The notes below the pieces were generated by a model, which saw only the letters and a program-made list of their open reading frames with translations, had not been told where the DNA came from and did no database searches. A program made the position numbers and the translations under genes. Positions 776 through 42,887 of a stretch of 64,000 nt of DNA are shown here, piece after piece. This DNA comes from Alphaproteobacteria bacterium UBA1185 (GTDB lineage Bacteria > Pseudomonadota > Alphaproteobacteria > Rs-D84): the NCBI GenBank assembly GCA_002310415.1, contig DBYN01000006.1, positions 154,565-218,564 of the forward strand, given 5' to 3'. Position 1 is the stretch's first letter; each line of letters begins with the position of its first letter.

Positions 776-947
776 ATTTGCAATCTTTATTTTGTAATAT
801 TATAATACACCTTGTCCAATATAAAAACAACAAGGATTTTATGTTATAAACATTTAAAGCAAACAGTAGTAAATGGTTTACAGGTGTTTTGTTTGTGATG
901 TCTAAATAGACATAGTGTTTATGATTTATAAAAAAAGGACAAATAAA

Positions 948-2525: not shown

Positions 2526-2545
2526 TAAAAAAGGGTTGGCACAAA

Positions 2546-4126
2546 ATGAATATGTATCAAAAATTGGAAAATGCGGCAAATCAATGGCCAGAAAATTTAT
2601 TTTTGGTTCGTGAAGGCACCACGTATTCTCAATTTATTGCCCAGGTGCGTGCGCGTGCAGCGACTTTGCGTGATGCAGGTGTAAAGTCTGGCGATATAGT
2701 TGGTGTGTTATCTCATAATTTGCCACAATTTCCATTAACTTTGTTTGCGATATGGTATTTAGGCGGCATAGTTTTAATGTTAGACACTAATCTAACACCG
2801 TTTGAATACGATAATATGGCAGAAATAGCTGGATGCAAATTCGTTTGTGCTGAACCTTCGTTTTTTTATAAAACGGATAAATTTACTTTCTTTGACATAA
2901 TAAAAAAAGATGGCGATATAGATTATGATTTGCGTGCACATCCTTCCGAATCTACTGATATTGCGTTAATGTCGTTTACATCTGGTTCTACTGGAACACC
3001 AAAGGTTGTGCCATTAACACACTTTAATTTGATAGAATGTGCAAATTCTTTGGAAGATATGTCTGAATATTATCATTCTGGTGATATAATGTATGGATTT
3101 TTGCCTTTGTACCATATATTTGGATTTTCAATTGGTATTTTGGCAACGATTCATTTTGGTGGCGGTTTGGTATTACAGCCTACGATTAATCCAAAATATA
3201 TATTGGACGATTTTAAAAAATTCAAACCGCATGTTATTCCAGCTGTACCAAGAATTTGGGAATTGTTCCGTAATAAAATCATAGATAATATGAAAGTGCA
3301 AAAAAAGTGGCGTGTTGCTTCGTTTATTTTAAATAATCAAAAAACTTTGCAAGATATGGGGTTATCGTTCTTTGTTCGCAAAGTTCAAGAACCATTACTT
3401 GAAATATTTGGTGGTCGTGCAAGGTTATTGATTGCGGGGGGGGCTGCTACAAAACCAGAAGTTGAAAATTTCTATGAATCGTTGGGATTAGCGTTTATTC
3501 AGGGGTATGGTTTAACGGAAACAGTTGGACCGATCTGTATTTCAAAGCCAACAAGTAAAAGATTAGCGTATTCTGTGGGTGCGCCTACATCAAATAACGA
3601 ATGTGAAATTCGTGATAAAGATGAAAACGGTGTTGGTGTTTTGTGGTTGCGTGGACATCAGGTTTTTGGTGGATATTTGAATAATCCAACTGTTAATTCA
3701 GAAGTATTTGATGACAAAGGATTCTTTAACACTGGCGATATGGTTTATATGGATAAAAACGGCGAATTACATTTTGCTGGTCGTAAAAAACAAGTAATCG
3801 TTTTGGATTCTGGTAAAAACGTTTATCCAGATGAATTAGAAGCTCTGTATATGAATATAGATGGCGTGAAAAATGTTGCTGTGTTTGAGCACAAGGTTAA
3901 AGACAAAACTGTTACATATGCAGTATTTCAAGTTACGCCTGATATGACAATGGAAAAGTTAGCAAAAGAGGTTGCCGAAGCAAACAAGAAAGTTGCTTCA
4001 TACAAATGGGTTACACATTTTGCGATGACAACAGATGATTTGCCAGTAACTAGTACGCAAAAGGTTAAACATCACATTGTTCGTCAGAATTTGATTGATG
4101 GTCAATATCCTGATAGAAAAGAGTAA
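2546..4126 (+). CDS. AMP-dependent synthetase/ligase, paralog 2 (tandem duplicate)
   Basis: 526 aa with the same motifs ('TSGSTGTPK', 'YGLTET', 'FFNTGDM'). About 60% identical to the upstream gene, and the C-terminal 29 aa are identical. Confidence 0.8.
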   Translation: MNMYQKLENAANQWPENLFLVREGTTYSQFIAQVRARAATLRDAGVKSGDIVGVLSHNLPQFPLTLFAIWYLGGIVLMLDTNLTPFEYDNMAEIAGCKFVCAEPSFFYKTDKFTFFDIIKKDGDIDYDLRAHPSESTDIALMSFTSGSTGTPKVVPLTHFNLIECANSLEDMSEYYHSGDIMYGFLPLYHIFGFSIGILATIHFGGGLVLQPTINPKYILDDFKKFKPHVIPAVPRIWELFRNKIIDNMKVQKKWRVASFILNNQKTLQDMGLSFFVRKVQEPLLEIFGGRARLLIAGGAATKPEVENFYESLGLAFIQGYGLTETVGPICISKPTSKRLAYSVGAPTSNNECEIRDKDENGVGVLWLRGHQVFGGYLNNPTVNSEVFDDKGFFNTGDMVYMDKNGELHFAGRKKQVIVLDSGKNVYPDELEALYMNIDGVKNVAVFEHKVKDKTVTYAVFQVTPDMTMEKLAKEVAEANKKVASYKWVTHFAMTTDDLPVTSTQKVKHHIVRQNLIDGQYPDRKE

Positions 4127-4132
4127 AGCCAA

Positions 4133-4160
4133 AGGCCGGCGCTTGCCGGTTTTTGTTTTG
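4133..4160. terminator. Bidirectional rho-independent terminator (ccggcgcttgccgg + T-run) between convergent ligase and mnmE
   Basis: GC-rich inverted repeat 'ggccggcgcttgccggtttttgtttt' seen in the sequence. Confidence 0.6.
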
Positions 4161-4166
4161 CGTGGG

Positions 4167-5462
4167 TTATTTCCCTAAACACAATTTTGAAAATGTTGCA
4201 TCGGCGATTTCGCTGGTTGTTATTATGCCAAGGATTTTGCCTATTGCATCACTTGCTCTGCGGACATGTTCGGCAAATATATCATAATTATTTTCTGATT
4301 TTGTAATTGCATTATTTAATTCGTTTATCGCATCAAGTAACAATTCGTGTGTTCTTTCGTTTATTGCAACACGCGATTCAGCACCCCCCATTAATGTATG
4401 CATTTTGTCTCGGATTGTTGCCATCAATTTATCAAAACCGTCATTTGTTTTGGCGGATGTATAAATCACGTTTTTTAAATTTCTGGTTTTCAATAAATCA
4501 GATTTATTTATAACCGTAATTTCATCGTTATTTATTTCAGTTGGAATATCACTATAAACATGAATTATTAAATCTGCGGTTTTAATTTCGTTATATGTGC
4601 GTTCAATACCGATTTTTTCAATTGTATCATTTGATTCCCGAATTCCTGCTGTATCGGACAGATTGACCAGGTATCCATCAATGTCAATTTGTTGGGAAAC
4701 TACATCACGTGTTGTGCCGGCTATATCAGAAACTATTGCACGATTTGAACCAACCAATTTATTGAAAATTGACGATTTACCGACATTTGTTTCACCAACC
4801 AATACAATATTAAAACCATTACGCAAAGCACGTGTCCCACGATATCCAGCAATCGCATCTTGTAATTCGTTCAATAAAATCTTGGTTTTATCTTTGATTT
4901 TTATATCTATGTTTTTGGGCAGGTCATCTTCGTCATAATCCAATATAGCCGCTGCATACGCAGATATTTCAATCATCTGATTTCGCCAATTATTATATAT
5001 TTTTGAATCATGCCCAGTGAAAGATTTAAGGGCAGATTGACGTTGTTTATCTGTTTGTGCATCCAGCAGGGCAATTAAACCGTCCGCATCAGTTAAATCC
5101 ATTTTGTTGTTGAAAAATGCACGTTTAGAAAACTCACCACATTCCGCCATACGACAATTGTGGGCGCGTAGAAATTCAAAGATTTTATTTATGACCGCTG
5201 GTGCGCCATGTGAATGTATTTCAATAACGTCTTCGCCGGTGAAAGAGTGGGGCGCACCAAAATAAATCGCAATACATTGGTCAATTAAATCGCCGCTATC
5301 ATCTTTTAGATTTGTATAATAAGCATGTCGCGGTGTATGTGCGTTTTTATTTATAATGCGTTCAAACAGTGCAATCAAATTTGAACCGCTGATTCTTATA
5401 ACCGCAACACCGGCTTTGCCATGTCCAGAAGACAGCGCAAAAATATTTTCACAATTATTCAT
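4167..5462 (-). CDS. mnmE: tRNA modification GTPase MnmE (TrmE)
   Basis: 431 aa. G-domain 'GETNVGKSS', 'DTAG', 'NKSD'. Ends in the MnmE-specific C-terminal 'CLGK'. Confidence 0.9.
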   Translation of the reverse strand: MNNCENIFALSSGHGKAGVAVIRISGSNLIALFERIINKNAHTPRHAYYTNLKDDSGDLIDQCIAIYFGAPHSFTGEDVIEIHSHGAPAVINKIFEFLRAHNCRMAECGEFSKRAFFNNKMDLTDADGLIALLDAQTDKQRQSALKSFTGHDSKIYNNWRNQMIEISAYAAAILDYDEDDLPKNIDIKIKDKTKILLNELQDAIAGYRGTRALRNGFNIVLVGETNVGKSSIFNKLVGSNRAIVSDIAGTTRDVVSQQIDIDGYLVNLSDTAGIRESNDTIEKIGIERTYNEIKTADLIIHVYSDIPTEINNDEITVINKSDLLKTRNLKNVIYTSAKTNDGFDKLMATIRDKMHTLMGGAESRVAINERTHELLLDAINELNNAITKSENNYDIFAEHVRRASDAIGKILGIITTSEIADATFSKLCLGK

Positions 5463-6903: not shown

Positions 6904-7866
6904 ATGGCAAGAAAATTATTTTTTTGCGTTTTGATGTTTGTATTTTGTGGCACTGTGAATGCTTTTGCGAATAATGATGAATTAATAAATCGGGCGCAAG
7001 AATTATTAGAGGCTACGCGTATAACATGTTCTGGTATTTCAAACGAGATAAGCAAAATTTCCAATATATCAAAGGCTAATACCGCGGTAACTGCTGTTGG
7101 AACTGTCGCATCAACTGGTGCTTTGGCGGTTGGTATTAAAAAATCTCAGGAAGAGCAAGAAATAGAAAAATTAATTAATGAAATATGTAAAAAAGGTGGT
7201 TGTACCGCTGAAGGCGTTGAAAAAATGTCAAATAAAGATTTTTTTGAAAATGTCATTGTAAAATTACCCAGATTATACGAATTACAAAAAAAGATAGATA
7301 AATCAAAAACATTAGGGAATTGGCGGACTGGATTGATGGCGGGAACGATTGGAACAAATTTGGCATCTGCGATAATGTCCGGATTAAATATAAATCAATC
7401 TGATTTGGTGCAACATATATCTGCGTGTAATGCGATGGTGGAAAGTATGCAGGACATAGAAATGGAACTGAGAAAAGTAGGTGTTGATTCAAGTCAAATG
7501 CAATTGATGAAAAAGGTTAATAATGTTCGGACGTGGTGCAATAAAATAGATGTCAAAGAAATAGAAAAAATAGAAAATCGAATGAAAGGTGTGCTGGGAA
7601 CGTCTGTGGTCGGTGGTGTTATTGGTATAGTTGGTGTTGGAACTAGTGCGGCTGCGAATAGTGATAAATACATGGCAATAGAAAATAAAGTTAGATTAAC
7701 AGAACAGGAAAAGAAAAAGGAACATGCGTTAAATACAACGGCAAACGTAATGGCTGGTGCGAATATCGCAACTGGTGCAGTGGAAACAGGATTAAATATA
7801 TCACTTATAATATTAATAAAAAAATTAATCCAACAAGCAGAACGTTGTGAGGAAAATTTAAAATGA
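6904..7866 (+). CDS. Hypothetical secreted protein (signal peptide, Gly/Ala/Thr-rich hydrophobic segments, coiled-coil-like)
   Basis: N-terminal signal 'MARKLFFCVLMFVFCGTVNAFA'. No recognisable catalytic motif. Repeated 'GTVASTGALAVGI' / 'GGVIGIVGVGTSAAA' segments. Confidence 0.5.
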   Translation: MARKLFFCVLMFVFCGTVNAFANNDELINRAQELLEATRITCSGISNEISKISNISKANTAVTAVGTVASTGALAVGIKKSQEEQEIEKLINEICKKGGCTAEGVEKMSNKDFFENVIVKLPRLYELQKKIDKSKTLGNWRTGLMAGTIGTNLASAIMSGLNINQSDLVQHISACNAMVESMQDIEMELRKVGVDSSQMQLMKKVNNVRTWCNKIDVKEIEKIENRMKGVLGTSVVGGVIGIVGVGTSAAANSDKYMAIENKVRLTEQEKKKEHALNTTANVMAGANIATGAVETGLNISLIILIKKLIQQAERCEENLK

Positions 7867-9689: not shown

Positions 9690-10008
9690 AAAAGCAAATC
9701 TTGTAATTCGTAAATCCAGACCACAAACGTTGGGTGCATCTTTTGGTGGGCTGTTAGATACTTTTGGTATTCGAGCATCTGATGCAGATTTGGCGAATAA
9801 TTGGAAAAATATTGTTGGTGCAGAAATTGCGAATATTTCAAAAGTTGTTGCAGTTAAACAAAAACGCGATAAGAAAATAGATGTTGTTTTGCGTCCTATG
9901 TCACCTGCGTTTGTGCTGGAATTATCATACAAAGTTGATGAGTGTATTAAAAAACTAAATAAATATTATGGTCGAGATATTGTTTCGAAAATAACAATCA
10001 GGAAGTAA
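9673..10008 (+). CDS. DUF721/DciA-like protein (putative replicative helicase loader family)
   Basis: 111 aa. Pattern 'W..IVG.EIA..S.VV......IDVVL...SPAFV.ELSY....I..LN...G..IV.KI' matches the DciA/DUF721 signature. Overlaps the mltA 3' end by 17 nt. Confidence 0.5.
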   Translation: MSNQDKKANLVIRKSRPQTLGASFGGLLDTFGIRASDADLANNWKNIVGAEIANISKVVAVKQKRDKKIDVVLRPMSPAFVLELSYKVDECIKKLNKYYGRDIVSKITIRK

Positions 10009-10009
10009 A

Positions 10010-10483
10010 ATGAAACGCATTTTGGGTATAGATCCAGGACTTTTGCATACAGGTTGGGCAATCATAGATGTTATTGGGAATGGCCGCAAATATATTGCTA
10101 GTGGTGTTATTTTGCCACCAACAAAAATGGCTTTGGCTGAAAGATTAGCGTTTATATTTAACGGTGTGTCTGAATTGTGTGAGAATTTTCAACCAAATGA
10201 ATGTGGTATAGAAGTGATTTTTGTTAATAAAAATGGAAAAACTACTTTGTTGTTGGGGCATGCACGTGCAGCGGCAATTACTGCGGTGGCAGTTAAAAAT
10301 ATACCGGTGTTTGAATATGAGCCAAACAAAGTAAAAAAAGCATTAACTTCAATTGGACATGCAGACAAAGAACAAATTTATAAAATGTTATCTATTTTGT
10401 TGCCTGATGCACATCCAAAAACATCGGATGAAAGTGATGCTATTGCAATCGCATTAACGCATGCAAATACATCGCGATTTTAA
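10010..10483 (+). CDS. ruvC: Crossover junction endodeoxyribonuclease RuvC
   Basis: 157 aa. 'ILGIDPGLLHTGWAII' RNase H-like fold start, with catalytic D/E positions conserved. Confidence 0.9.
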   Translation: MKRILGIDPGLLHTGWAIIDVIGNGRKYIASGVILPPTKMALAERLAFIFNGVSELCENFQPNECGIEVIFVNKNGKTTLLLGHARAAAITAVAVKNIPVFEYEPNKVKKALTSIGHADKEQIYKMLSILLPDAHPKTSDESDAIAIALTHANTSRF

Positions 10484-10543
10484 GAATAAAAAATAATTCT
10501 TTTAATTTTTTATTTGTGGTATATTTTTACACAGGGTGTAAAG

Positions 10544-11755
10544 ATGAGTAGAGATAAATATCTTGCAATTAATAAAAATGTAACTGGGTTTTCTTTCGCC
10601 AATTTGGGACTGTTTACTGGCTTTGCTAGCAGTATAGTTAATGCTGTTTATTCTTTGGTTATTTTGGGTATCTTTAAAGAGTTTTTTAACGAAGAAACGG
10701 CATCAGCGGCGGTTGGTGTATATGCGGCGGTTTATGCGCTTTTTGCGGTTTTTGTTGGTTTCTTTTCAACAGAAATTTTACGTTGGTTTACAAAAACAAG
10801 ATTGCTTTATATAACAATGGTAACCTTGGGTTTATGTTATTGTATGATGAGTTTTTCTGTCAAGGCAGAAACATTCATTGTTTTGGATTATGTTGCCCAG
10901 ACTGCTTTGACTTTGATAAGCGTGTTATTGCCATTATTTATTTCAGATTTTTCTAAGAACATAGGAATGGAAAAATTAAATGCTAGATTGCATTTGTGGG
11001 AAAATGTTGGTGCCATAGTTGCGCCTGTATTTGCGATGACTGCGGTTACATGGTTTGATGGTAATTATCGTGCGCCGTTTTTGGCTGCGGGAATAATTTA
11101 TTTTTCTGGGTTGTTGTTTTTTAAACATTTTGGTATTGTCCAGCCCGATAAAAAATTAAAACATGTAAATATACACAAGACTATAAGGGCTTTGAAGATT
11201 ACCGCGATTTCCTTTTTCAAAAAAGCCGGGATGTTGCGTGCATACGTTGTGAATTTCGGTTTTTATGCTTTGCGTTCTATGCGATTGCTTTATGTGCCGA
11301 TTGTTGTCATAGAAAACGGTTTTTCAAATGAAACGCTGGGGGTTGTTTTGTCTGTGGGTATTTTACCTTACATAATAATAGAGATGTTTATTGGTAAATT
11401 GATGAAAAGATATGGGGTGCGTTTGTGGTTAACTTTGGGATTTGTGTCATTTTCGGTTTTTTCGTTGTTTGCGACTTTTGTTACTGGATATAGTTTGTTG
11501 GTTATTTTTATATTGTGGCAAATATCTGGCGCTTTGATGGAATCAGCACATGATTTATTATTTTTTAATGATATGTCAAAACAAGATCAGGCAAAATATT
11601 ATGGTGTTTTCAGAACAAGTGTGAATTTTCCAAGTGTTATAGCACCAATTTTGGGAACATTATGTATCACAGTTTTTGGTTCGACATCAGCCGTGTGGTT
11701 AATAACCGCTGTTGCGGGCATATTATCTACGATAGTTTTGTGGTCAAGACGTTAA
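10544..11755 (+). CDS. MFS-type transporter (12 predicted TM helices)
   Basis: Twelve hydrophobic segments and an MFS-like loop, 'GKLMKRYGVR'. Start chosen at MSRDKYL. Confidence 0.6.
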   Translation: MSRDKYLAINKNVTGFSFANLGLFTGFASSIVNAVYSLVILGIFKEFFNEETASAAVGVYAAVYALFAVFVGFFSTEILRWFTKTRLLYITMVTLGLCYCMMSFSVKAETFIVLDYVAQTALTLISVLLPLFISDFSKNIGMEKLNARLHLWENVGAIVAPVFAMTAVTWFDGNYRAPFLAAGIIYFSGLLFFKHFGIVQPDKKLKHVNIHKTIRALKITAISFFKKAGMLRAYVVNFGFYALRSMRLLYVPIVVIENGFSNETLGVVLSVGILPYIIIEMFIGKLMKRYGVRLWLTLGFVSFSVFSLFATFVTGYSLLVIFILWQISGALMESAHDLLFFNDMSKQDQAKYYGVFRTSVNFPSVIAPILGTLCITVFGSTSAVWLITAVAGILSTIVLWSRR

Positions 11756-11767
11756 TATAAATAGGTC

Positions 11768-11796
11768 TTGCATTAAGGGGTTTTTGTTTGTATTAT
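11768..11796 (+). promoter_or_regulatory. Candidate sigma-70 promoter for recA (TTGCAT-17 nt-TATTAT)
   Basis: -35 'ttgcat' at 11768-11773, a 17-nt spacer, -10 'tattat' at 11791-11796, then RBS 'aaaagg' and the ATG at 11822. No alpha-type LexA box (GTTC-N7-GTTC) seen. Confidence 0.35.
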
Positions 11797-11821
11797 TTCC
11801 CAAAAGAAAAGGGGTAATTAC

Positions 11822-12895
11822 ATGGCAAAAAAAGAAGTTGAAAAAGACACAATCGTAGTAAAAAATCCTGCGTTGGAATCTGCTTTGGCACAAATTCAAA
11901 AACAATTCGGCAAAGAAGCTATCATGAAAATGGGTGATGGTTCTCAGCAAAATATAGAAGCGATATCATCTGGTTCTTTGGGGTTGGATATTGCGTTGGG
12001 TGTCGGCGGTTATCCGCGTGGGCGTATTGTTGAGATATATGGACCTGAATCTTCTGGTAAAACCACGTTGGCTTTGCATGCTGTGGCAGAAGCGCAAAAA
12101 AAGGGTGGCACATGTGCATATATTGATGCTGAAAATGCTTTGGATCCATCTTATGCCAGAAAACTTGGTGTCGATGTTGCTAATTTGATTATTTCCCAGC
12201 CAGATTCTGGTGAACAAGCATTGGAGATTGCAGATACTTTAATAAAATCTGGTGCAGTTGATGTCGTGGTTGTTGATTCTGTGGCTGCGCTGGTGCCAAA
12301 GGCCGAATTAGAAGGTAATATTGGCGATACCTATATGGGAACAACTGCTAGGCTGATGAGTCAGTCGTTAAAGAAATTGGCGGGTAGTGTTTCGCGTAGT
12401 AATACTTTGTTGATTTTCATAAATCAGATTCGTATGAAAATTGGTGTAATGTTCGGTAGCCCTGAAACAACGTCTGGTGGGAATGCATTAAAGTTCTATG
12501 CTTCTGTTCGTTTAGATATTCGTAGAACTGGTGCGATAAAAGATAAAGAAAATATTATTGGTAATGAAACTCGGGTAAAGGTTGTTAAAAACAAAGTTGC
12601 ACCACCTTTTAGAACGGTAGATTTTAAAATTATGTACGGCGAAGGTATTTCCAGAATAAGCGAAATATTGGATATGGGTGTGAAATACAACTTTATTGAA
12701 AAGGCTGGCAGTTTTTATTCTTATAACAATGAACGTATCGGTCAAGGCGAAGCGAACGCGCGTCAATGGTTAAAAGATAACCCAGATGCACAAAAAGAAT
12801 TACTGGATAAGATTATGGCCAAGGCAAATGGCATTGCAGAAGAAATGACAACTGGTCCGGGTGATGATTCTGATGCTGATATTGAAGGCGAATAA
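11822..12895 (+). CDS. recA: Recombinase RecA
   Basis: 357 aa. Walker A 'GPESSGKTT', L1/L2 regions '[37 protein letters not shown]', acidic C-terminus. Confidence 0.95.
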
Positions 12896-12951: not shown

Positions 12952-13851
12952 ATGAATATAGCCAGATTTTTTGCGATGAGTGAAGTTGTATTACGTGGGC
13001 ATATTTTAAATTGGTTTTGGCGTAGTCGTGAACATCGGCGCATTGTTCGCAGTAACGTTATTTCGAATGTGATACCAAAATATTTTAAACGATATTTGCC
13101 TGCGGCTGCTGCTGTCAAAGAACGCAAAGTTATAAACGATGACAAAGGCGAAAAAATATTTACAATGTGGTTACAAGGGGAAGATAAAGCACCTGCGATG
13201 GTAAAGGCTTGTTTTAAAAGTATAAGAAAACATTGTAAACAGGAATTGGTTGTATTGGATGAAAATACAATTTTTGATTATATTACTTTGCCACAAGAAA
13301 TTATAGAAAAACGTAAACAGGGTAAAATCAAGCATGCACATTTTGCTGATATTTGTCGTGTTGAATTATTGTACGAACATGGTGGTATCTGGTTGGATTC
13401 AACTGATTTTGTTACTTCGCCAATTCCAAAGTGGATAATTGATGAAGATTTTTTTGTGTATATGGCTGGAAAAAACGTTGGCAGTCCATACAGTTTTATG
13501 CAAAATTGTTTTATTCGTGCGCGCAAAGGTGCTTATTTGCTAGATGCGTGGCGCGCGATGATTTTGGATTATTGGATGCACGAAAATCACAGTTTTGATT
13601 ATTTTATGCATCAATTGTTGTTTAAAACTTTGGTTATGAATGATGAACGTGCAAAAAAATATTTTGCAAAAATGCCGCATGTTGACCAAGATCCAACACA
13701 TGCTTTGTGGTGGACTTATCGAAATAGGCCGTTTGATAAAAAAACTTTTGACGATGTTACGTCTGGGGCTTTTTTTCAAAAGGTAACATATCGTGGTACT
13801 GAAAATCCAATTCCTGGTTCTTTTGAAGATGTTATGATAAATAAAATGTAG
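12952..13851 (+). CDS. Glycosyltransferase, DXD sugar-binding family (Gly_transf_sug / capsule-synthesis-like)
   Basis: 'HFADICRVELLYEHGGIWLDSTDFV' matches the conserved 'RLELLYKYGGIYLDTDV' block of the TcdA/Och1-type GT-A family. Confidence 0.6.
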   Translation: MNIARFFAMSEVVLRGHILNWFWRSREHRRIVRSNVISNVIPKYFKRYLPAAAAVKERKVINDDKGEKIFTMWLQGEDKAPAMVKACFKSIRKHCKQELVVLDENTIFDYITLPQEIIEKRKQGKIKHAHFADICRVELLYEHGGIWLDSTDFVTSPIPKWIIDEDFFVYMAGKNVGSPYSFMQNCFIRARKGAYLLDAWRAMILDYWMHENHSFDYFMHQLLFKTLVMNDERAKKYFAKMPHVDQDPTHALWWTYRNRPFDKKTFDDVTSGAFFQKVTYRGTENPIPGSFEDVMINKM

Positions 13852-13859
13852 GAGATTTT

Positions 13860-14882
13860 ATGCAGCCCAAAATATCAATTATTATACCGATGTATAATGT
13901 AGAAAAGTATCTGCGAAGATGTCTGGATTCTGTAAAAAATCAAACTTTTTCTGATTGGGTTGCAATTTGTGTCGACGATGGTTCGCTTGATAATTGTGGT
14001 AAAATCGCAGAAGAATATGCAAAAACAGATAAACGTTTTATTGTTATTCACAAAAAAAATGGTGGGTTGTCCGATGCCAGAAATGCGGGTATGCCGTATG
14101 CAAATGGTAAATATATAATGTTTTTAGATAGTGATGATTTTATTCATCCACAAACAATGGAAATTGCGTATAATTTGGCAGAAAAAAATAAATCAGATAT
14201 TGTTTCTTTTACTTATGACAGATTTTATCGCCCACAATTGATGGTGCGACATGTGTTGCATTTGGATACTGATAATGTCGTACCGTTTGGTGTAAAAAAG
14301 AGATATGATATTGAAAAAATACAAACACGTACAACAAATGATATTTTTGAATATGCAACAGAACGGACTCATAACAAAACAAATCCAAATCGAAAATGGT
14401 TAATTAAACATTGTCAGGTTTGGAAAAATTTATATAAAAAATCTTTAATCAAAGATATTCCTTTTATCAAGGGGATTTTGTTTGAAGATTTTCCATGGTG
14501 GTCTGCTGTTATGCTGAAACGTCCGCGTACAACAGTTGTTCCTTTACCATTATATTATTATATACCGAATTTTGGTGGTATTGTATTAAGTGAAAAGCAA
14601 TTAAGAATTATGCACAGTTTATGTGTGGGTATAAAAACTGCTTACAAATTATATAAACAAAAAGCAGATAAGATTCAAATGAAAAAATGGCAATCTTTAT
14701 TTATGTGGTTTTTTGTAAATTGGGCTTTTCGCAAATTAAAATATTTGAAAAATGATACAGAAATACAATCTGCGCGTGATGAGTTTATTGAAATGAACAA
14801 GATTGGTGTATTTAATGATGTTCCAGATGAATGGTATGATTTGCGTGAAAAAATATACAAATTTATCGGTGATTATAAATGA
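13860..14882 (+). CDS. Glycosyltransferase family 2 (paralog A)
   Basis: 'ISIIIPMYNVEKYLRRCLDSV..Q...DWVAICVDDGSLD' and the 'LDSDD' DXD motif. Contains an A8 tract at 14052-14059. Confidence 0.8.
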   Translation: MQPKISIIIPMYNVEKYLRRCLDSVKNQTFSDWVAICVDDGSLDNCGKIAEEYAKTDKRFIVIHKKNGGLSDARNAGMPYANGKYIMFLDSDDFIHPQTMEIAYNLAEKNKSDIVSFTYDRFYRPQLMVRHVLHLDTDNVVPFGVKKRYDIEKIQTRTTNDIFEYATERTHNKTNPNRKWLIKHCQVWKNLYKKSLIKDIPFIKGILFEDFPWWSAVMLKRPRTTVVPLPLYYYIPNFGGIVLSEKQLRIMHSLCVGIKTAYKLYKQKADKIQMKKWQSLFMWFFVNWAFRKLKYLKNDTEIQSARDEFIEMNKIGVFNDVPDEWYDLREKIYKFIGDYK

Positions 14883-15886
14883 AAATACATAGACCAAAAA
14901 TATCAATAATAATACCGGTGTATAATACAGAAAAGTATTTATCCAGATGTTTGGATAGTTTATTGAATCAGACTTTTCAAGATTGGTGTGCTATTTGTAT
15001 TGATGATGGTTCGACAGATAACAGCGCAAAGATTTTGGATAAATATACAAAAAATGATAATCGTTTTATTGTTATACATAAAAAAAATGCAGGTGTTTCA
15101 TCCGCGCGTAATGATGGTGTAACGAAGGCAAATTCTGAATATGTTATGTTTTTGGATTCTGATGACTGTATTCATCCACAAACATTAGAAATAGCGTATA
15201 ATACCGCGGTAAAAAATAATGTTGATATTGTTTCTTTTAAATATGATGCCAATTTATATAAAGATGCGTTAAATAGTGCAAATGTTGATGATTTGTTAAA
15301 AACACGCATAGTAATACGGTATGATTTGCAAAAAATACGATATAAACAAACAGATAGTCTAATAAAATTTGCGACAGAAAGAAATCATTCTTTTGGTCGA
15401 TATAAAATACGGCACTGTTATCCTGTGGTGCATTTATATAAATTGGATTTGATTAAAGGTATTAAATTTAATACAAAAATAAAGGTTACAGAAGATTTTC
15501 CATTTTGGACATCTGTATTGTTGCGTAATCCGAAAAGCATTATTTTGAATATCCCTTTATATTTTTATATTCCAAATAAAACGTCTGCTTTGGGGGCTAC
15601 AAATATCGAAAAGTTTTTTGATAATGTTTCGTTATCTATAATCGAATCGTTCAAAACCGTTTTAAAAAATGAACCGCAAAGTATGTGGGTTAAAATCTGG
15701 AAACGTGAATTTTTATGGCCGTTTATAATAACTTGTGTTCGTTCTGTACGCGCTATACAGGACAAACAGCGGGTTATAGAACGTTTAATAAAAATGAAAG
15801 AAATGAATATATTTGATAATCCGCCAACATTTCGTGCACGAAAGTATAAACATAGAATCGAAAAGATTATATCCCCGATTTCTTAA
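14879..15886 (+). CDS. Glycosyltransferase family 2 (paralog B, tandem duplicate)
   Basis: Same architecture, 'ISIIIPVYNTEKYLSRCLDSL...DDGSTDNS...LDSDD'. ATGA overlap with the upstream gene. Contains an A8 tract at 15080-15087. Confidence 0.8.
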   Translation: MKIHRPKISIIIPVYNTEKYLSRCLDSLLNQTFQDWCAICIDDGSTDNSAKILDKYTKNDNRFIVIHKKNAGVSSARNDGVTKANSEYVMFLDSDDCIHPQTLEIAYNTAVKNNVDIVSFKYDANLYKDALNSANVDDLLKTRIVIRYDLQKIRYKQTDSLIKFATERNHSFGRYKIRHCYPVVHLYKLDLIKGIKFNTKIKVTEDFPFWTSVLLRNPKSIILNIPLYFYIPNKTSALGATNIEKFFDNVSLSIIESFKTVLKNEPQSMWVKIWKREFLWPFIITCVRSVRAIQDKQRVIERLIKMKEMNIFDNPPTFRARKYKHRIEKIISPIS

Positions 15887-16709
15887 ATCTTGTTGGAAGT
15901 TTAATAGTTCGTTTTATGCCGAACATGGCTGGTTTTCGTAGTGCATAAATTGGACGGCAATACGTTTGTAAAATACGTGCAATATGTATCCATTTTTCAT
16001 TTGAAGGTTTTGTATTTGTAACCGCATTTATTGTTCCGTTTCCGCGTCTTTGTAAATGGTTTAACCAATCTTTACCGCGTTTTTTCGCTTTGTTTTCTAA
16101 CATTTTCATATCAATTGCGCCAAAGTGTAAAAGATATAAATTTTTATCCAGGTGGAAATTATGGCGTTTTATACTGTGAAATCCGCTGCCCCAAAACACA
16201 GGTTTATTTATAACAACTGGTTTGGTATAACGCGTGGAAAGCAGGGCATATTCGCGTTGTTGTAATAAGGGTGCTTTTATATCCAACTGTTTTTCATAAT
16301 TCAAATGTTGACCGATATCCAAGCCTAATCCAGATAATGTAGTGTTTATATATTTTTCAGATAAATATTCGGATAATGTTTTGTGTGTATTTGGGTCAAC
16401 AATTAAAAATTCATCGCTGTCACAACCAATAACAATATCATAAGTTTTTAATAATATATGTGCCAATTCAGAAAGTTTATTTATTCTGTATTTATCGCCA
16501 GACGAACGGGACATTGGTACGTATGGCAATTTTGTTATATGTGCTTTGCCGGCATTTTCCGGTATTTTTTGGTCAAATCCATCTAGTAATATATACAGAT
16601 TTTCTGTGCCAAAATTTTTTCCATAATAAGCAATCCAGCGCGACAAGAAAAATTCATCATCACGTGCCATTGTTATTGCTGCTATGCGTTTTTGTTTTTT
16701 CATAGACAT
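15867..16709 (-). CDS. Putative GT-A fold glycosyltransferase (unclassified family), opposite strand within GT island
   Basis: 280 aa. 'IVIGCDSDEFLIV' DXD-like acidic motif after a predicted beta strand. No other family-defining motif recognised. Confidence 0.35.
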   Translation of the reverse strand: MSMKKQKRIAAITMARDDEFFLSRWIAYYGKNFGTENLYILLDGFDQKIPENAGKAHITKLPYVPMSRSSGDKYRINKLSELAHILLKTYDIVIGCDSDEFLIVDPNTHKTLSEYLSEKYINTTLSGLGLDIGQHLNYEKQLDIKAPLLQQREYALLSTRYTKPVVINKPVFWGSGFHSIKRHNFHLDKNLYLLHFGAIDMKMLENKAKKRGKDWLNHLQRRGNGTINAVTNTKPSNEKWIHIARILQTYCRPIYALRKPAMFGIKRTIKLPTRFKKSGI

Positions 16710-16780
16710 ATATTCCTTGGTTGTCTATAATACGAGTACATTATATATATAATTGAATGTTTTTGCAATAAGGGAAAAAT

Positions 16781-17662
16781 ATGAAAAAACCAAAAGTTGC
16801 GATTTTGTATATTGCTTTGGGCAGATACATTTGTTTTTGGAAAGATTTTTACGAATCATGTGAAAAGCATTTGTTAAATTGTGATAAACATTATTTTATT
16901 TGGACGGATAATAAATCTTTTGATTATTACGATGCTAAAAATGTTACTGTTTCTGGTGCCCAAAAAATGGGCTGGCCTTTTGATACTGTTTTACGATTTG
17001 AAATGTTTTTACAACGACAAAAGGAATTGCAAAAATACGATTATGTTTATTTCTTTAATGCAAATATGTTGTTTGTAAACGATGTTGATTTGGCTGAAAT
17101 TACACCACAATCATGGCACGAATCTGGTATAGTTGCTGGTGTTCATCCGTTTTTTTATAAATCTGATAATCCAGATATATTACCGTATGAAAGACGTTGC
17201 CAATCTACCGCGGCGGTGCCGTATGGTATAGGCAAATATTATGTATGCGGTGCATTTAATGGTGGATGTGTGGATGCTTTTTTTAAAATGTGTAAAGTTT
17301 TATCAAAAAATGTCCAAACTGATTTAAATAATGGTATAGAAGCCATTGTTGATGACGAATCGCATTTAAATGCGTATTTGGTTGACAAGACTTTTTTACT
17401 TGCGGGTCGCGCATACGGTTTTCCCGAAGGACATTTAAGACACATTCGTCAAAAAGAACGTGATTTAATTAAAATCATATCAAGACACAAAGAAAACCCA
17501 AAGTATGGTGGTGTTCGTTGGTTGCGTGGTCAAACAGATAGAAAAACACCAAATAATATATTTACGCCACTTTTGATAAAAATGTGTAGGTTTATTTCTG
17601 TGTTTATAATGAATCCACAAAAACGCAGAAAGGTAAAAAAATATTTTGGTTCGTATTCGTAA
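16781..17662 (+). CDS. Glycosyltransferase family 6 (alpha-1,3-Gal/GalNAc transferase, ABO blood-group transferase-like)
   Basis: 'HYFIWTD' (compare GT6 'VHYYVFTD'). 'HPFFYKSDNPDILPYERRCQSTAAVPYGIGKYYVCGAFNGG' matches '[40 protein letters not shown]'. 'NGIEAIVDDESHLNAYLV' matches 'NGIEAVWHDESHLNKYLL'. Confidence 0.8.
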   Translation: MKKPKVAILYIALGRYICFWKDFYESCEKHLLNCDKHYFIWTDNKSFDYYDAKNVTVSGAQKMGWPFDTVLRFEMFLQRQKELQKYDYVYFFNANMLFVNDVDLAEITPQSWHESGIVAGVHPFFYKSDNPDILPYERRCQSTAAVPYGIGKYYVCGAFNGGCVDAFFKMCKVLSKNVQTDLNNGIEAIVDDESHLNAYLVDKTFLLAGRAYGFPEGHLRHIRQKERDLIKIISRHKENPKYGGVRWLRGQTDRKTPNNIFTPLLIKMCRFISVFIMNPQKRRKVKKYFGSYS

Positions 17663-17677
17663 AAAAGGGGGAATATC

Positions 17678-18661
17678 GTGATTGAGAAAATAAATATAGC
17701 ATTTTGTTTTGATGAAAACATGTATATGTTGGCGGGTGTTGCTATTGCATCTTTGTTATATCATGCTATGAATAATTGTGCGTATGATATATATTGTATT
17801 GTTCCAGAAGCATTTGCAAAGTCGAAGCGTGATGAATTAGTTGCGATGGTTGAGAGTAAAGATAAAAATTCAAAAATTATATTTTTAAATGCAAATCGCG
17901 ATTTTGATAATTCTGTGGTAAAACAGTATACGCCAGGTATTTTTTATAGATTTATGTTACTGAAATTATTGCCAAAAAATATAGATAAAATAATTTATTG
18001 CGATGTAGATGTAACATTTCATGATAATTTAATAGATTTGTATAATATAGATATGAAGGATAATTTGATTGCTGGCGTCGCAGATGCTGATCAATTATGT
18101 CGTGCATACCCAAACAATGGATCGTATATTAATAGTGGTATATTGTTGATGAATGTTAGTAAACTAAGATTAATAAACGCTTATGATGAGTGGCTAAAAT
18201 TATCTAAGCAAGATATTTTTGCTTATCCGGATCAGGATATATTAAACAAAACATGTGACGGTAAAATTTTGTATTTACCTATGAGGTATAATTATATGCC
18301 TGGCGCTGGCGGGCGGTTTGAAAAACCTGTGGCTGATGGAATTTACACAATGTCAGATTATCAAGATGCCGTTCGAAATCCTGCGATAATTCATTATATT
18401 TTACGGCAGCCATGGAAAAATCGTGAAAATTTAGTCGGAGATTTATGGTGGAAATATGCTTATATGACACCGTTTTATGCATATTTCAGGTCAAAGATAG
18501 AACATCAACCAGCTTTAATAAAAAAAGATGTTTATCTGTTTAATTTGATTAAAATCATGACAATAAAAATACGTCAAACAAAACACAAATATTACTTGTT
18601 TGGTTTTTTACCTTTATTTCTGATTAAAATACCAGACAGATTTGATAGAAGACAAGTATAA
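17678..18661 (+). CDS. Glycosyltransferase family 8 (LPS alpha-1,2/1,3-glucosyl/galactosyltransferase RfaJ/RfaI-like)
   Basis: GTG start with an 'aagggggaa' RBS. 'INIAFCFDENMYMLAGVAIASL', 'YCDVDV' DXD, 'NSGILLMNV' and C-terminal 'IIHYILRQPWK' match GT8 family motifs. Confidence 0.75.
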   Translation: MIEKINIAFCFDENMYMLAGVAIASLLYHAMNNCAYDIYCIVPEAFAKSKRDELVAMVESKDKNSKIIFLNANRDFDNSVVKQYTPGIFYRFMLLKLLPKNIDKIIYCDVDVTFHDNLIDLYNIDMKDNLIAGVADADQLCRAYPNNGSYINSGILLMNVSKLRLINAYDEWLKLSKQDIFAYPDQDILNKTCDGKILYLPMRYNYMPGAGGRFEKPVADGIYTMSDYQDAVRNPAIIHYILRQPWKNRENLVGDLWWKYAYMTPFYAYFRSKIEHQPALIKKDVYLFNLIKIMTIKIRQTKHKYYLFGFLPLFLIKIPDRFDRRQV

Positions 18662-18695
18662 TTGTATGTGATAAAAGAAATTTATTATATAATAT

Positions 18696-18719
18696 AAAAA
18701 CCGCTATACAGCGGTTTTT
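18696..18719. terminator. Bidirectional terminator hairpin (aaaaccgctatacagcggttttt)
   Basis: Lies between convergent GT8 and typA. Member of a repeated hairpin family (see 48699 and 52744). Confidence 0.6.
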
Positions 18720-18743
18720 AAGTGTTTTATCGTTTTTATATCT

Positions 18744-20588
18744 TTAATCAGTTTCAGCAAAACGATATGCTTTTTTACGTTTACCACTATCTAATTCTTT
18801 TTTGCGCAAACGAATCGTTGCCGGTGTAACTTCGACCAATTCATCATCTTGGATATACGATAACGCTTCTTCCAAAGACATTTTTCTTGGTGGTGCCAAG
18901 AACAATTTTTCATCGGCAGTTACACTGCGAACGTTTGTTAATTGTTTACCGCGGACTGGGTTAACTTCGATGTCATTTTCTTTGCTGTGTTCACCAACAA
19001 TCATGCCACTATACACTTCTGTTTGTGGACCAACAAATAACACACCTCGTGGTTCCAAATTATGTAGTGCATACGTTGTTGTAGAACCCGCTTCCATAGA
19101 AACCAAAACGCCCGGACGGTATTGTGTAATTGGGCCACGATATGAATCGTATTTATCAAAAACCCTGTTCATAATGCCTGTGCCACGCGTATCTGTTCTG
19201 AATTCAGATAAATATCCAATCAAACCGCGTGATGGCGCAGAAAATACAATGCGTGTTTTACCAATACCAGATGGTTTCATCTCTGTAATTGTTGCTTTGC
19301 GCTTAGTCATTTTTTCAATAACAACACCGCTGAATTCATCGTCTACATCAATAACTACTTCTTCGATTGGTTCAAGTTTTTCACCGTTTTCATTTGTTTG
19401 CATAACAACACGTGGACGTGATACAGATAATTCAAAGCCTTCACGACGCATAGTTTCAATTAAAATACCCAATTGTAATTCACCACGACCAGATACTTCA
19501 AATGCTTCATTATTTTCACTTTGGGAAACACGTAATGCGATGTTTGTTTCTGCTTCTCGGAATAATCTTTCACCGATCATACGCGATGTTAATTTTTTGC
19601 CGGATTTACCAGCCAACGGCGAAGTATTCACAAAAAATGTCATAGTTAATGTTGGGGGGTCAATCGGCATAGCAGGGATTGGTTCGTTTACAGATGGGTC
19701 GCAAAGCGTATCTGCCACGGTTGCTTTTGAAAAACCAGCCAAAACAACAATGTCACCAGCAGATGCAGAATCCCTAGATACTTTATTTATACCTTGATGT
19801 TCAATAATTTTTGTGATTTTGGCATTTTCGATAAATTCACCTTTCATATTTATTGCTTTCACGGTTTGCCCAACATGGACTGTTCCAGATTCGATTTTAC
19901 CAGTCAAAATGCGACCAACATAGGGGTCTGCCTCTAATGTAGTTGCCAACATAGTAAAAGGTGCATCAATTTGACATCTTGTTCCATTGCAATCTGGGGC
20001 AGGGACATGGTCCACAATCAATTGGAATAGTGGTGTTAAATCTTTGTTTGGATTATCAATATCTTTTAAATCACGAATCGCCCAACCATCACGACCACAT
20101 GCATATAAATATGGAAAATCAAGTTGTGAATCATTTGCACCCAATTTATCAAATAAATCAAAAGTTTCAGTTAAAACTTCTTCTGGTCTTGCATCACCAC
20201 GGTCAATTTTATTTATACATACAATAGGGCGCAAATTTAATTTTAATGCCTTGGATAATACGAACTTTGTTTGAGGTAATGGACCTTCGGCGCTGTCTAC
20301 CAATAAAACTACACCATCAACCATAGATAAAATACGTTCAACTTCGCCACCAAAATCAGCGTGTCCCGGGGTGTCAACGATATTAATTTTATATTCGCCC
20401 CATTGGATAGATGTTGGTTTTGCTGATATAGTAATTCCTCGTTCGCGTTCGATATCACCGCTGTCCATAACGCGGTCTTCGACGTGTTCATTTTCACGAA
20501 ATGTACCAGCCTGTTTCAACATATTATCAACCAAAGTCGTTTTACCATGGTCAACGTGTGCAATAATTGCAATATTACGAATTTTCAT
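18744..20588 (-). CDS. typA: Translational GTPase TypA/BipA
   Basis: 'MKIRNIAIIAHVDHGKTTLVD', 'DTPGHADF', 'NKIDR' and EF-G-like domains. Start set at MKIRN (20588) with an 'aagg' RBS; the longer ORF extension was rejected. Confidence 0.9.
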   Translation of the reverse strand: MKIRNIAIIAHVDHGKTTLVDNMLKQAGTFRENEHVEDRVMDSGDIERERGITISAKPTSIQWGEYKINIVDTPGHADFGGEVERILSMVDGVVLLVDSAEGPLPQTKFVLSKALKLNLRPIVCINKIDRGDARPEEVLTETFDLFDKLGANDSQLDFPYLYACGRDGWAIRDLKDIDNPNKDLTPLFQLIVDHVPAPDCNGTRCQIDAPFTMLATTLEADPYVGRILTGKIESGTVHVGQTVKAINMKGEFIENAKITKIIEHQGINKVSRDSASAGDIVVLAGFSKATVADTLCDPSVNEPIPAMPIDPPTLTMTFFVNTSPLAGKSGKKLTSRMIGERLFREAETNIALRVSQSENNEAFEVSGRGELQLGILIETMRREGFELSVSRPRVVMQTNENGEKLEPIEEVVIDVDDEFSGVVIEKMTKRKATITEMKPSGIGKTRIVFSAPSRGLIGYLSEFRTDTRGTGIMNRVFDKYDSYRGPITQYRPGVLVSMEAGSTTTYALHNLEPRGVLFVGPQTEVYSGMIVGEHSKENDIEVNPVRGKQLTNVRSVTADEKLFLAPPRKMSLEEALSYIQDDELVEVTPATIRLRKKELDSGKRKKAYRFAETD

Positions 20589-20688
20589 TTTTTGTGCCTT
20601 GTTTATTGTATGTTTTTTGATAAATGTATAGGTTAAACTATATTTTTCTAATTTCAAGAAATTTTAATATGAAATATTAAAAAATAAC

Positions 20689-36570: not shown

Positions 36571-36605
36571 TCAGTTGTCTTGTGTATAACTGTGGTGTTG
36601 GTGTG

Positions 36606-37478
36606 ATGAAAAAGTATTTGTTGGCATTAATTGGTTTGTTCGTTGTAAATGTTGCGCTGGCGCAAGGTGTAGTGTTGTCTGATACTTATGTATCAGATGA
36701 TGCTTTGACGGAAGAACCTGTTGTCGAAGAACCTTTTGTTGCGCCGCAATCGTCGAAGTCTGTTGTATCACAAAAATCTGGTGGGTATGTTGAACAACAG
36801 GTGAAACCTGTATTTCGTGGTGTTGTATCAAATGATTTATCTGACCCCTTGTTTATGTTACCAGATGATAGATTTTTATCTGATACGTTTGTTAATTTCA
36901 TAGACAGTAAATTACGTCTGGGGCAGTATATTGGATATGGTATAAATAACAATTTTGTTATTCATGCCAGTATGCTTTATCAGATAGATTTTACACGAAA
37001 TCATGAAAATGGTTTTTCCAGTACTGAATTTGGTGGAATATATCGTATGAACCATGGAACGGGCCAATCGCATATAATTTCAGATGTTTTGTTTGGGTTG
37101 AAGTTATGGGGTTCATCGCATGTTAGAACACCAGAATATGCAGATTCGTCTTATTATGCAGGATTGCGTTTTGGACGTCAATTTGCAGGTTTAACATTGG
37201 CGGGAACCGTAAAATCTACGTGGGTATTCCAAGATGAACGTGGATTATCTTATATTGATTTTATTCCAGAGGCGTATTTTAGATTTCAATATGATTGGCG
37301 TGCAGGTTTGGGATTTGATTTCAGGAAATCTACGAACAGATTTTTATTGCCAAATCAAGGGTGGTTAAATTTGAAACTGTTACGTCAGTATGGCAATACT
37401 CAATGGGTTGGACGGTTTGATTATGAATTTGAATCCGAAGAAGTTCAAGTTGGTATGAATATCAAGATATTGTTTTAA
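36606..37478 (+). CDS. Putative outer-membrane beta-barrel protein (second of tandem pair)
   Basis: Signal 'MKKYLLALIGLFVVNVALAQG'. Ends in '...VGMNIKILF'. Start set at the internal MKKYLL. Confidence 0.45.
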   Translation: MKKYLLALIGLFVVNVALAQGVVLSDTYVSDDALTEEPVVEEPFVAPQSSKSVVSQKSGGYVEQQVKPVFRGVVSNDLSDPLFMLPDDRFLSDTFVNFIDSKLRLGQYIGYGINNNFVIHASMLYQIDFTRNHENGFSSTEFGGIYRMNHGTGQSHIISDVLFGLKLWGSSHVRTPEYADSSYYAGLRFGRQFAGLTLAGTVKSTWVFQDERGLSYIDFIPEAYFRFQYDWRAGLGFDFRKSTNRFLLPNQGWLNLKLLRQYGNTQWVGRFDYEFESEEVQVGMNIKILF

Positions 37479-41957: not shown

Positions 41958-41969
41958 TCGTGTTAATCC

Positions 41970-42845: not shown

Positions 42846-42887
42846 TTTATTTTTATTGTATCACATTTTATGATAAACTGACAACAA

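Follow-up and report, generated by a model that had tools for sequence, protein, structure and literature searches.

Does an alphaproteobacterium of the gut carry an enzyme of the family that makes the ABO antigens, and if so, which sugar does it transfer and to what? The question is raised by an open reading frame (ORF) at 16781..17662 (+ strand) in a 64,000-nucleotide stretch of contig DBYN01000006.1 of Alphaproteobacteria bacterium UBA1185, the whole of which is referred to as the window. An earlier note had proposed that this ORF encodes a glycosyltransferase of family GT6 which, in a surface-glycan locus, makes a blood-group A/B-like epitope mimicking host glycans. Our analyses indicated that the product of the gene is probably a functional retaining alpha-glycosyltransferase that works without a metal ion and belongs to the bacterial clade represented by BoGT6a, and that the gene lies in a surface-glycan island. 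A blood-group product is plausible but was considered improbable.

Family and fold of the GT6 protein

The ORF begins with ATG, is preceded at 5 nt by a Shine-Dalgarno-like AGGGA (16771-16775) and encodes 293 amino acids (aa), with a catalytic GT-A domain at about aa 1-250 followed by a membrane tail up to aa 293. A profile search with Pfam significantly assigned Glyco_transf_6 (PF03414) to aa 6-202 (E=1.5e-23; 83.6 bits against a gathering cutoff of 25). Among all PDB sequences the top match found with HMMER was BoGT6a (E=5.7e-46, aa 5-250), followed by about 55 entries of the human ABO transferases GTA and GTB (~1e-21) and, after these, by bovine alpha-1,3-galactosyltransferase (alpha3GT; ~1e-12). 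The AlphaFold2 model, constructed from a 41-sequence alignment, had a mean pLDDT of 93.1 and a pTM of 0.89. Comparison of this model with the PDB using Foldseek, with TM values normalised to the target, revealed that the 16 top matches were all BoGT6a chains (TM 0.90-0.93, root mean square deviation 1.7-2.0 A), including 4cj8 (TM 0.92, 1.7 A), and that GTA, GTB and alpha3GT ranked below them.

Four sequence blocks were identified in the translation, KHYFIWTD (aa 36-43), FFNANMLFVNDVD (aa 91-103), YERRCQSTAAVPYGIGKYYVCGAFNGG (aa 136-162) and NGIEAIVDDESHLNAYL (aa 184-200). All the blocks quoted in the earlier note are present, but its quotation DDESHLN masks the Val-Asp that stands before Asp-Glu, where GTA, GTB, alpha3GT and BoGT6a have Trp-His. 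The proposed family was thus borne out by the Pfam score, the BoGT6a match and the structural comparison alike: the ORF encodes a GT6-family glycosyltransferase of the BoGT6a-type bacterial clade, and every structural hallmark of GT6 and of that clade, which is defined by an NXN motif and a basic-hydrophobic-basic (BHB) tail, was found in it.

Metal site, catalytic residues and membrane tail

The earlier note had left the nature of the metal site open. Direct alignment settled the point, since the residues equivalent to the metal-binding DXD motif are N93-A94-N95 (17057..17065, + strand). In the HMMER alignments, which have no gaps in this region, the three residues lie opposite N95-A96-N97 of BoGT6a and D211-V212-D213 of human GTB. 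N93 and N95 were invariant in the 41-sequence alignment and N-A-N was present in 210 tabulated homologs. A second candidate, the D101-V102-D103 sequence (17081..17089, + strand), was rejected as a metal site; it is located 6 residues past the NXN motif and is aligned with H-V-G of GTB, and among the 87 members of the subfamily described below D101 is kept in 17 and replaced by Pro in 53. Because N93-A94-N95 aligns with the DXD position and the DVD is poorly conserved, the protein is of the NXN type. BoGT6a, which carries the same motif, is fully active in ethylenediaminetetraacetic acid (EDTA), and replacement of its N95 by Asp lowers kcat more than 4000-fold (PMC3516806). Judged by its NXN motif, the present enzyme would likewise be metal-independent, that is, active in EDTA. 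In the same region (aa 101-104, 17081-17092), D103-L104 was invariant in all 87 subfamily members but G, S, D, N or T in other bacterial GT6 proteins.

Gap-free alignments placed the catalytic loop at V190-D191-D192-E193 (17348..17359, + strand), with E193 as the catalytic Glu. D192-E193, corresponding to D302-E303 of GTA and D191-E192 of BoGT6a, were invariant in the 41-sequence alignment and in 87/87 subfamily members. Mapping of positions also located a C-terminal lid between K237 and R249 (17489..17527, + strand), the two cationic residues of which correspond to K231 and R243 of BoGT6a and were invariant in the same two sets; in BoGT6a these residues bind the diphosphate of UDP in place of a metal ion (PMC3961637). 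Y16, W65 and R72 are the conserved equivalents of Y13, W66 and R73 of BoGT6a.

The final 44 residues (aa 250-293) read GQTDRKTPNN-IFTPLLIKMCRFISVFIM-NPQKRRKVKKYFGSYS and form a BHB tail (17531..17659, + strand) composed of TDRK, IFTPLLIKMCRFISVFIM and KRRKVKK. The tail contains 10 K/R against 1 D/E. The only hydrophobic 19-residue windows of the whole protein are located in it (Kyte-Doolittle 1.2-1.55; hydrophobic core at aa 260-277), and the AlphaFold2 model predicted helices at aa 262-273 and 279-286. The tail is conserved across the subfamily. A BHB membrane-association domain and the NXN motif together define the bacterial clade (PMC3516806), and in composition, hydropathy and predicted helices the tail of the present protein is a match to that domain.

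A subfamily with an altered sugar pocket

Active-site positions were read in 244 well-aligned homologs obtained from two database searches, 87 belonging to the subfamily of the query and 157 being other bacterial GT6 proteins. Every member of the subfamily was at least 54% identical to the query. The counts for its signature positions were D191 87/87, V190 83/87, A158 87/87, C156 84/87, S234 86/87 and L13 79/87. Among the 157 other proteins, the positions equivalent to 190 and 191 were occupied by Trp in 119 and by His in 143, respectively; these proteins had mostly G, A, C or S at 158, Q, M, C or A at 156, I, L or M at 234 and T at 13. The Trp-His pair that precedes Asp-Glu in all solved GT6 structures is therefore replaced by V190-D191 in the protein studied here. 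The pair is not an absolute requirement of the family, as V/F/Y-H-D-E was found in 34 bacterial GT6 sequences.

An exhaustive search of 1.84 billion cluster representatives, clustered at 50% identity, revealed one full-length representative of the subfamily at 59% identity, while the next match showed only 46%. The same search returned 2,084 GT6-like clusters at E<=1e-3 and 1,246 at E<=1e-10, compared with the 25-30 species mentioned in the structural papers; the statement that GT6 is rare in bacteria is consequently out of date. The V-D-D-E / C-G-A variant was not found described in a literature search, and no member of the subfamily was detected in sequenced phages and plasmids. Judged by sequence, the subfamily is discrete and uncharacterised, with the signature L13, C156-G-A158, V190-D191 and S234, and therefore its acceptor may be something other than the fucosylated H antigen. 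Its members come from Alphaproteobacteria of the rumen, the termite gut and other guts and from Bacteroidales, a spread read from metagenome contigs and their source names, the GTDB species genomes having given one locus.

The replaced residues are of known importance. In all solved GT6 structures the acceptor galactose stacks against the Trp, and the His has been modelled as binding O6' of the donor (PMC3516806); the papers on BoGT6a name the corresponding W189 and H190 as key for substrate binding. One explanation is that the V-D-D-E / C-G-A subfamily has moved to other chemistry, using a donor other than UDP-galactose (UDP-Gal) or UDP-N-acetylgalactosamine (UDP-GalNAc), or an acceptor other than a beta-galactoside, such as heptose, glucose or rhamnose of a lipopolysaccharide (LPS) core. 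Six active-site positions (L13, C156, A158, V190, D191 and S234) are fixed differently, each in at least 79 of the 87 members, with D191 in place of the His modelled as hydrogen-bonding the donor O6' (PMC3516806), and the score of the protein with the curated NCBIfam GT6 model is sub-threshold. The neighbourhoods of the subfamily, detailed below, are also dominated by GT61 and GT32-like genes and by RgpF, which belongs to rhamnan synthesis, instead of the fucosyl- or galactosyltransferase partners of a blood-group pathway. However, R72, D192, E193 and G157, whose equivalents in BoGT6a bind O3 and O4 of galactose, are unchanged, Trp189 and His190 of BoGT6a contact the donor through main-chain atoms only in the crystal complex (PMC3961637), and other bacterial GT6 proteins, the 34 V/F/Y-H-D-E sequences, are also without the Trp. 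Such a move to other chemistry was considered unlikely. The broader proposal that the subfamily represents a new GT6 specificity class, with a non-fucosylated and possibly non-galactoside acceptor or with a donor other than UDP-Gal or UDP-GalNAc, is doubtful, if a little less so.

Integrity of the gene and selection

Five independent metagenome contigs encode the identical GT6 protein amid the same neighbouring genes, and its orthologs are intact in two syntenic relatives, L001 and L014. The ratio of nonsynonymous to synonymous substitution rates (dN/dS) against these two relatives was 0.08-0.11, the same range as for SerRS, TrxR and the major facilitator superfamily (MFS) transporter. The gene is intact and under purifying selection, and the suspicion that it might be a disrupted pseudogene was dispelled. 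Since W189 and H190 of BoGT6a, both named as key residues in substrate binding, are replaced, the gene could also be taken for a GT6 remnant in decay or without catalytic activity, or its product for a protein that binds sugars but is not an enzyme. This explanation is very improbable: besides the intact frame on the five contigs and in all orthologs and the low dN/dS, the D-E pair, the NXN motif, K237 and R249 do not vary among the 87 members, the replacements are fixed and not scattered, and the AlphaFold2 model is well folded and confident.

Donor and acceptor

Direct alignments located the donor-specificity triplet at C156-G157-A158 (17246..17254, + strand), which corresponds to L266-G-G268 of GTA, M266-G-A268 of GTB and A155-G-G157 of BoGT6a. 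In BoGT6a, a GalNAc transferase, this segment governs the choice between GalNAc and Gal (PMC3516806), and according to a review the choice of donor is decided sterically above all by residue 266 (PMC4202792). The alignment to donor-specificity residues suggested by the earlier note could be made, although its outcome was mixed: A158 fits GTB, while C156 matches neither GTA nor GTB and is smaller than either Met or Leu. Over four positions, C-G-A-F agrees with M-G-A-F of GTB at three, and BoGT6a has A-G-G-L. The L266G/G268A "cis-AB" mutant of GTA uses both donors. A158, at the 268 position, points toward UDP-Gal. UDP-Gal is considered the most likely donor, with a confidence little better than even; use of GalNAc or of both donors is possible, and a different donor is conceivable.

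The acceptor site has features of both kinds. It resembles that of the fucose-requiring enzymes in H122, Y154 and the small residue S234 at the A7 position, and departs from it in the change of Trp to Val, of T134 of BoGT6a to Pro and of G235 of GTA (G124 of BoGT6a, the A2 position) to Phe. The Phe occurs in 7 of the 87 subfamily members, which are the nearest relatives of the query.

These residues bear on the proposal that the protein is a classical histo-blood-group A/B synthase, adding alpha1,3-linked Gal or GalNAc to a Fuc-alpha1,2-Gal acceptor on LPS (Fuc, fucose) and so mimicking host mucosal glycans in the rumen. H122 is the His of fucose-requiring enzymes, where alpha3GT has Gln; the A7 position that accommodates the fucose is small, as in GTA and GTB, and not Trp; the donor segment agrees with that of GTB at three of four positions; and the organism comes from a mammalian gut. 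Moreover, the characterised bacterial GT6 enzymes, BoGT6a, WbnI and that of Helicobacter mustelae, all use Fuc-alpha2-Gal acceptors (PMC4202792). The three departures of the acceptor site, among them the loss of the acceptor-stacking Trp, argue against such a synthase, and so does the gene content of the window and of related loci, as described in the following sections.

The recA-typA glycosyltransferase island and its host

The GC content of the window was 0.35 and nearly all of its genes are housekeeping genes. One of the contigs carrying the identical GT6 protein derives from run SRR094926 of the cow-rumen metagenome of Hess et al. 2011. The sole match among GTDB species genomes was 'uncultured proteobacterium RUG12675', a syntenic rumen metagenome-assembled genome (MAG) whose RecA and TypA are 95% and 96% identical, and the GT6 protein of another syntenic contig is labelled Alphaproteobacteria MAG by NCBI. 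The low GC content and the rumen origin agree with the description of the organism as AT-rich and host-associated. LptF/G, Lnt, BamB and LpoB are encoded in the window and show a diderm envelope with LPS transport.

As had been proposed, the GT6 gene sits in a glycosyltransferase cluster, being the fifth of six glycosyltransferase genes located between recA (11822..12895, + strand; 92-95% identical in L001 and L014) and typA/bipA (18744..20657, - strand; 96-97% identical in the same loci), which form the conserved left and right borders of an island. The Pfam scan assigned the first three genes to a GT32-like Caps_synth (12952-13851, + strand) and to two GT2 enzymes (13860-14882 and 14879-15886, both + strand), each with PRK10073 as its best NCBIfam resemblance. 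The fourth gene (15867..16709, - strand), divergent from GT6, encodes a GT2_4-type (GT-A) glycosyltransferase of 280 aa (PF13704, E=7.9e-10) and is kept beside GT6 only in the 7 closest relatives. This protein was examined as a hidden fucosyltransferase and rejected, as it is of the GT2_4 type and shows no similarity to the GT11-family protein found beside GT6 at another locus, L017; nor is it related to the protein of 259 aa encoded next to GT6 in L006. The sixth gene (17678..18661, + strand) begins 15 nt past the GT6 stop, has its own GGGGGA Shine-Dalgarno sequence and encodes a GT8-family glycosyltransferase (PF01501, E=3.9e-31) with a weak match to LPS 3-alpha-galactosyltransferase.

The divergent 71-bp gap before GT6 contains a promoter-like TAGACA, 17-nt spacer and TATAAT (16703..16731, + strand; 11/12 matches) about 50 nt before the GT6 start. 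This site was the best promoter match in the 9 kb scanned, the total count of sites being not above the shuffled expectation. A consensus scan also found a terminator-like, bidirectional hairpin with an 11-bp stem (18695..18720) between the convergent GT8 and typA genes. On slight support from such motifs, GT6 and GT8 are probably co-transcribed as a two-gene operon.

Comparison of the slot between recA and typA (window 12952-18661, L001 5354-13115, L014 3159-11148) revealed that L001 and L014 keep the GT32-like gene, one GT2, the 280-aa gene and GT6, and that they are without GT8 and the second GT2, carrying RgpF, GT92, GT61 and GT4 instead. The GT6 proteins are 70-72% identical to these orthologs and the MFS transporter 74-76%, while RuvC, RecA, TypA, SerRS and TrxR, which are most of the flanking housekeeping proteins, are 81-97% identical. 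Since the gene content differs and GT6 is kept in the relatives, the slot is a variable island in which GT6 is a long-term resident. No genes for a flippase, a polymerase or an initiating transferase were found in the island by the Pfam scan. In L014 the ortholog (4077-5101) of the first GT2 of the window is broken in two by a frameshift close to a short run of T (~4560); this may represent a pseudogene, a sequencing error or a switch, and a long homopolymer is not involved.

Two further candidates were rejected. Recent horizontal acquisition was not indicated, as the drop in GC content is modest (0.32 in the island against 0.36 +/- 0.024 in the flanks) with a similar GC content at third codon positions, and the orthologs occupy the same slot with a divergence like that of other non-core genes. 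Phase variation was likewise set aside, no homopolymer longer than 8 nt being present in the island and such tracts being no commoner than in the AT-rich background.

The GT-A enzymes include some bacterial toxins, and a VirD4/TraG-like coupling protein is encoded in the window (54668-56938). It might hence be supposed that the GT6 protein is a secreted effector that glycosylates proteins of the host or of competitors, perhaps exported via a type IV secretion system. The GT6 gene lies, however, inside the glycosyltransferase block, 37 kb from the VirD4-like gene; the protein ends in the kind of membrane-association tail that is typical of bacterial GT6 enzymes engaged in LPS assembly (PMC3516806), neither a signal peptide nor an effector-like feature was noted in it, and relatives elsewhere sit with LPS-core and lipid A genes. 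An effector function is exceedingly improbable.

Gene neighbourhoods of the subfamily

A further 34 metagenome loci were fetched, and all loci were reduced to 33 non-redundant subfamily loci containing 377 ORFs. The recurrent neighbours within about 4 kb of GT6 in these loci were GT2 (15), GT61 (13), Caps_synth (12), GT2_4 (12), RgpF (8) and GT92 (5). In L008 the GT6 gene is accompanied by a GT9 heptosyltransferase, HldE and GmhA, and in L017, on an alphaproteobacterial contig carrying GcrA, it is located near LpxB and LpxA.

The same loci bear on blood-group mimicry. The Fuc-alpha1,2-Gal acceptor of the classical A/B reaction is produced by a GT11 enzyme from GDP-fucose. In L017 a GT11-family gene (P0046, 119.6 bits) divergently adjoins GT6, and this keeps the mimicry hypothesis alive. 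An enrichment of GT11 near subfamily genes was nevertheless rejected, as GT11 was found in 1 of the 33 loci, the usual neighbours being GT2, GT61, GT32-like, GT2_4 and RgpF genes, and a phmmer search with the L017 GT11 protein as probe retrieved only itself among the 377 ORFs. Pfam scans of the window ORFs revealed no GT11 and no GDP-fucose synthesis gene across the 64 kb. Because such genes are absent from the window and GT11 adjoins GT6 at 1/33 loci, A/B mimicry is a minority reading, and an A/B synthase is improbable. The epitope put forward by the earlier note is thus not supported as stated, the Trp to Val change adding to the gene content of the window and of the loci; host blood-group mimicry is plausible but unsupported here.

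Other features were observed at two of these loci. One flank of GT6 in L017 (6548-8867, - strand) comprises the divergent GT11 gene, a DUF268/methyltransferase gene and a hexapeptide-repeat gene; the other (9941-12664, + strand) is a 907-aa ORF without Pfam match, with LpxB and LpxA just past it. In L018 (11193-16522) the GT6 gene adjoins a prophage-like block with a serine recombinase, DUF2924, a ParB-methyltransferase and a terminase large subunit.

Proposed role of the enzyme

From family, fold, motifs, selection and genomic context we infer a chemistry, a membrane topology and an LPS target for this GT6 enzyme. By homology with BoGT6a, it would bind a UDP-hexose, most likely UDP-Gal and possibly UDP-GalNAc or both, with N93 of the NXN motif, K237 and R249 holding the diphosphate in place of Mn2+. 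E193 and D192 would position the sugar for retaining transfer to a sugar hydroxyl of a lipid-linked surface-glycan intermediate, the classical acceptor site being the 3-OH of beta-Gal. The BHB tail would anchor the enzyme at the cytoplasmic face of the inner membrane, and the island most likely builds a strain-variable oligosaccharide of the LPS core or lipooligosaccharide (LOS) type, or another surface oligosaccharide.

Several observations weigh against this proposal. With Trp changed to Val and His to Asp, a different specificity or a reduced activity is conceivable. The curated NCBI model for bacterial GT6 (NF041524) scored the protein just sub-threshold (232.5 bits, E=4.5e-69, cutoff 250), and since the score falls under the cutoff, relatives carry no more specific name than 'glycosyl transferase' or 'hypothetical protein'; this near miss is consistent with a divergent subfamily, not with non-membership. 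The promoter and the terminator were recognised solely by their match to a consensus, and the numbers of such sites are at or near the shuffled expectation. The assignment to the LPS core draws by analogy on gene neighbourhoods in other genomes, and these are not uniform: in L012, a Bacteroidales contig, GT6 is part of a large capsule/O-antigen-like polysaccharide cluster, and in L010, L016, L018 and L019 it is an orphan amid housekeeping genes.

Other features of the window

One ORF of 675 aa (38839-40866, + strand) unites a YbeY endoribonuclease domain (aa 17-134) and the LNT_N (aa 184-347) and CN_hydrolase (aa 464-621) domains of an apolipoprotein N-acyltransferase; it reflects either an unusual fusion of genes or read-through of two neighbouring ones. 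The VirD4/TraG-type protein of 756 aa (54668-56938, - strand) is encoded amid housekeeping genes, and other type IV secretion genes were not recognised nearby. ORFs of 144-431 aa without a Pfam match at E<=1e-5 are located at 41019-43559, 48091-50352, 35275-37478, 53405-54652 and 6904-7866, partly in runs of three. Two tandem AMP-binding genes of the acyl/aryl-CoA ligase type (536 and 526 aa) occupy 915-4126 (+ strand). An ORF at 51346-51999 (+ strand) with a match to DUF2659 (E=9e-8) adjoins the BamB-like gene; DUF2659 is known mainly from Rickettsiales-type genomes.

Significance

GT6 enzymes make the ABO and alpha-Gal antigens, and it has been proposed that natural antibodies against A, B and alpha-Gal originate from bacterial GT6 enzymes and that these enzymes serve host mimicry. 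The diversity of the bacterial enzymes amounts to about 2,000 clusters at 50% identity, against some 25-30 species in the structural papers, and includes a gut-associated subfamily in which the sugar-binding loop was rebuilt (W-H to V-D) while the catalytic machinery was retained. If the product were truly a B-like or alpha-Gal-like epitope, a new microbial source of antigen in ruminants would be indicated. If the specificity differs, the subfamily would constitute a natural experiment on the coding of donor and acceptor in GT6, and a candidate metal-independent enzyme for glycan synthesis; were it a new specificity class, GT6 chemistry would extend past the alpha1,3-Gal(NAc)-to-beta-Gal reaction of all characterised members. 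Either outcome would be an incremental addition to a well-understood family.

Comparison with known systems

The bacterial NXN/BHB clade has been known since 2005-2014 from work on WbnI, BoGT6a and the enzyme of H. mustelae. The Bacteroides ovatus protein BoGT6a (PDB 4AYL, 4AYJ, 4CJ8, 4CJB and 4CJC) is a metal-independent GalNAc-transferase that makes the blood-group A antigen. The protein described here is about 36-40% identical to it over aa 5-250 and shares its fold, N-A-N motif, D-E pair, K/R lid and BHB tail. It differs in that W189-H190 of BoGT6a is V190-D191 and A-G-G-L is C-G-A-F, and further in the changes (from BoGT6a) of T10 to L13, G124 to F124, T134 to P135, I228 to S234 and H239 to V245. 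Its tail comprises 44 aa against 17 aa in BoGT6a, and its host is a rumen alphaproteobacterium, whereas BoGT6a comes from a human-gut Bacteroides.

With GTA, GTB and bovine alpha3GT the protein shares the blocks HYF/YxFTD, YERR...GG and NGIEA..DESHLN.YL and the GT-A fold (TM ~0.69), and with GTA and GTB the equivalents of the catalytic E303 and of H233 (H122), as well as a donor segment resembling that of GTB. In contrast, W300-H301 of GTA and GTB is replaced by V-D, and the vertebrate enzymes have D-V-D and require Mn2+, where the present protein has N-A-N. The vertebrate enzymes are type II Golgi proteins with an N-terminal anchor and stem; here there is no N-terminal extension and an amphipathic/hydrophobic tail is found at the C-terminus.

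WbnI of E. coli O86 (B antigen) and BgtA of H. mustelae (A antigen), compared by description, are likewise bacterial GT6 enzymes and act in the assembly of LPS O-antigen or LOS (PMC4202792, PMC3516806). They act on Fuc-alpha1,2-Gal, and E. coli O86 has the alpha1,2-fucosyltransferase WbwK (PMC4202792), while no GT11 gene is present in the window. The GT6 proteins of cyanophage P-SSM2 and Parachlamydia acanthamoebae resemble the present one in their minimal catalytic domain, the identity to the cyanophage genes being about 32%, but their clade keeps DXD and is without the BHB tail (PMC3516806). Having both NXN and a BHB tail, the GT6 protein of the rumen alphaproteobacterium belongs to the other prokaryotic clade, that of BoGT6a, and not to the DXD clade.

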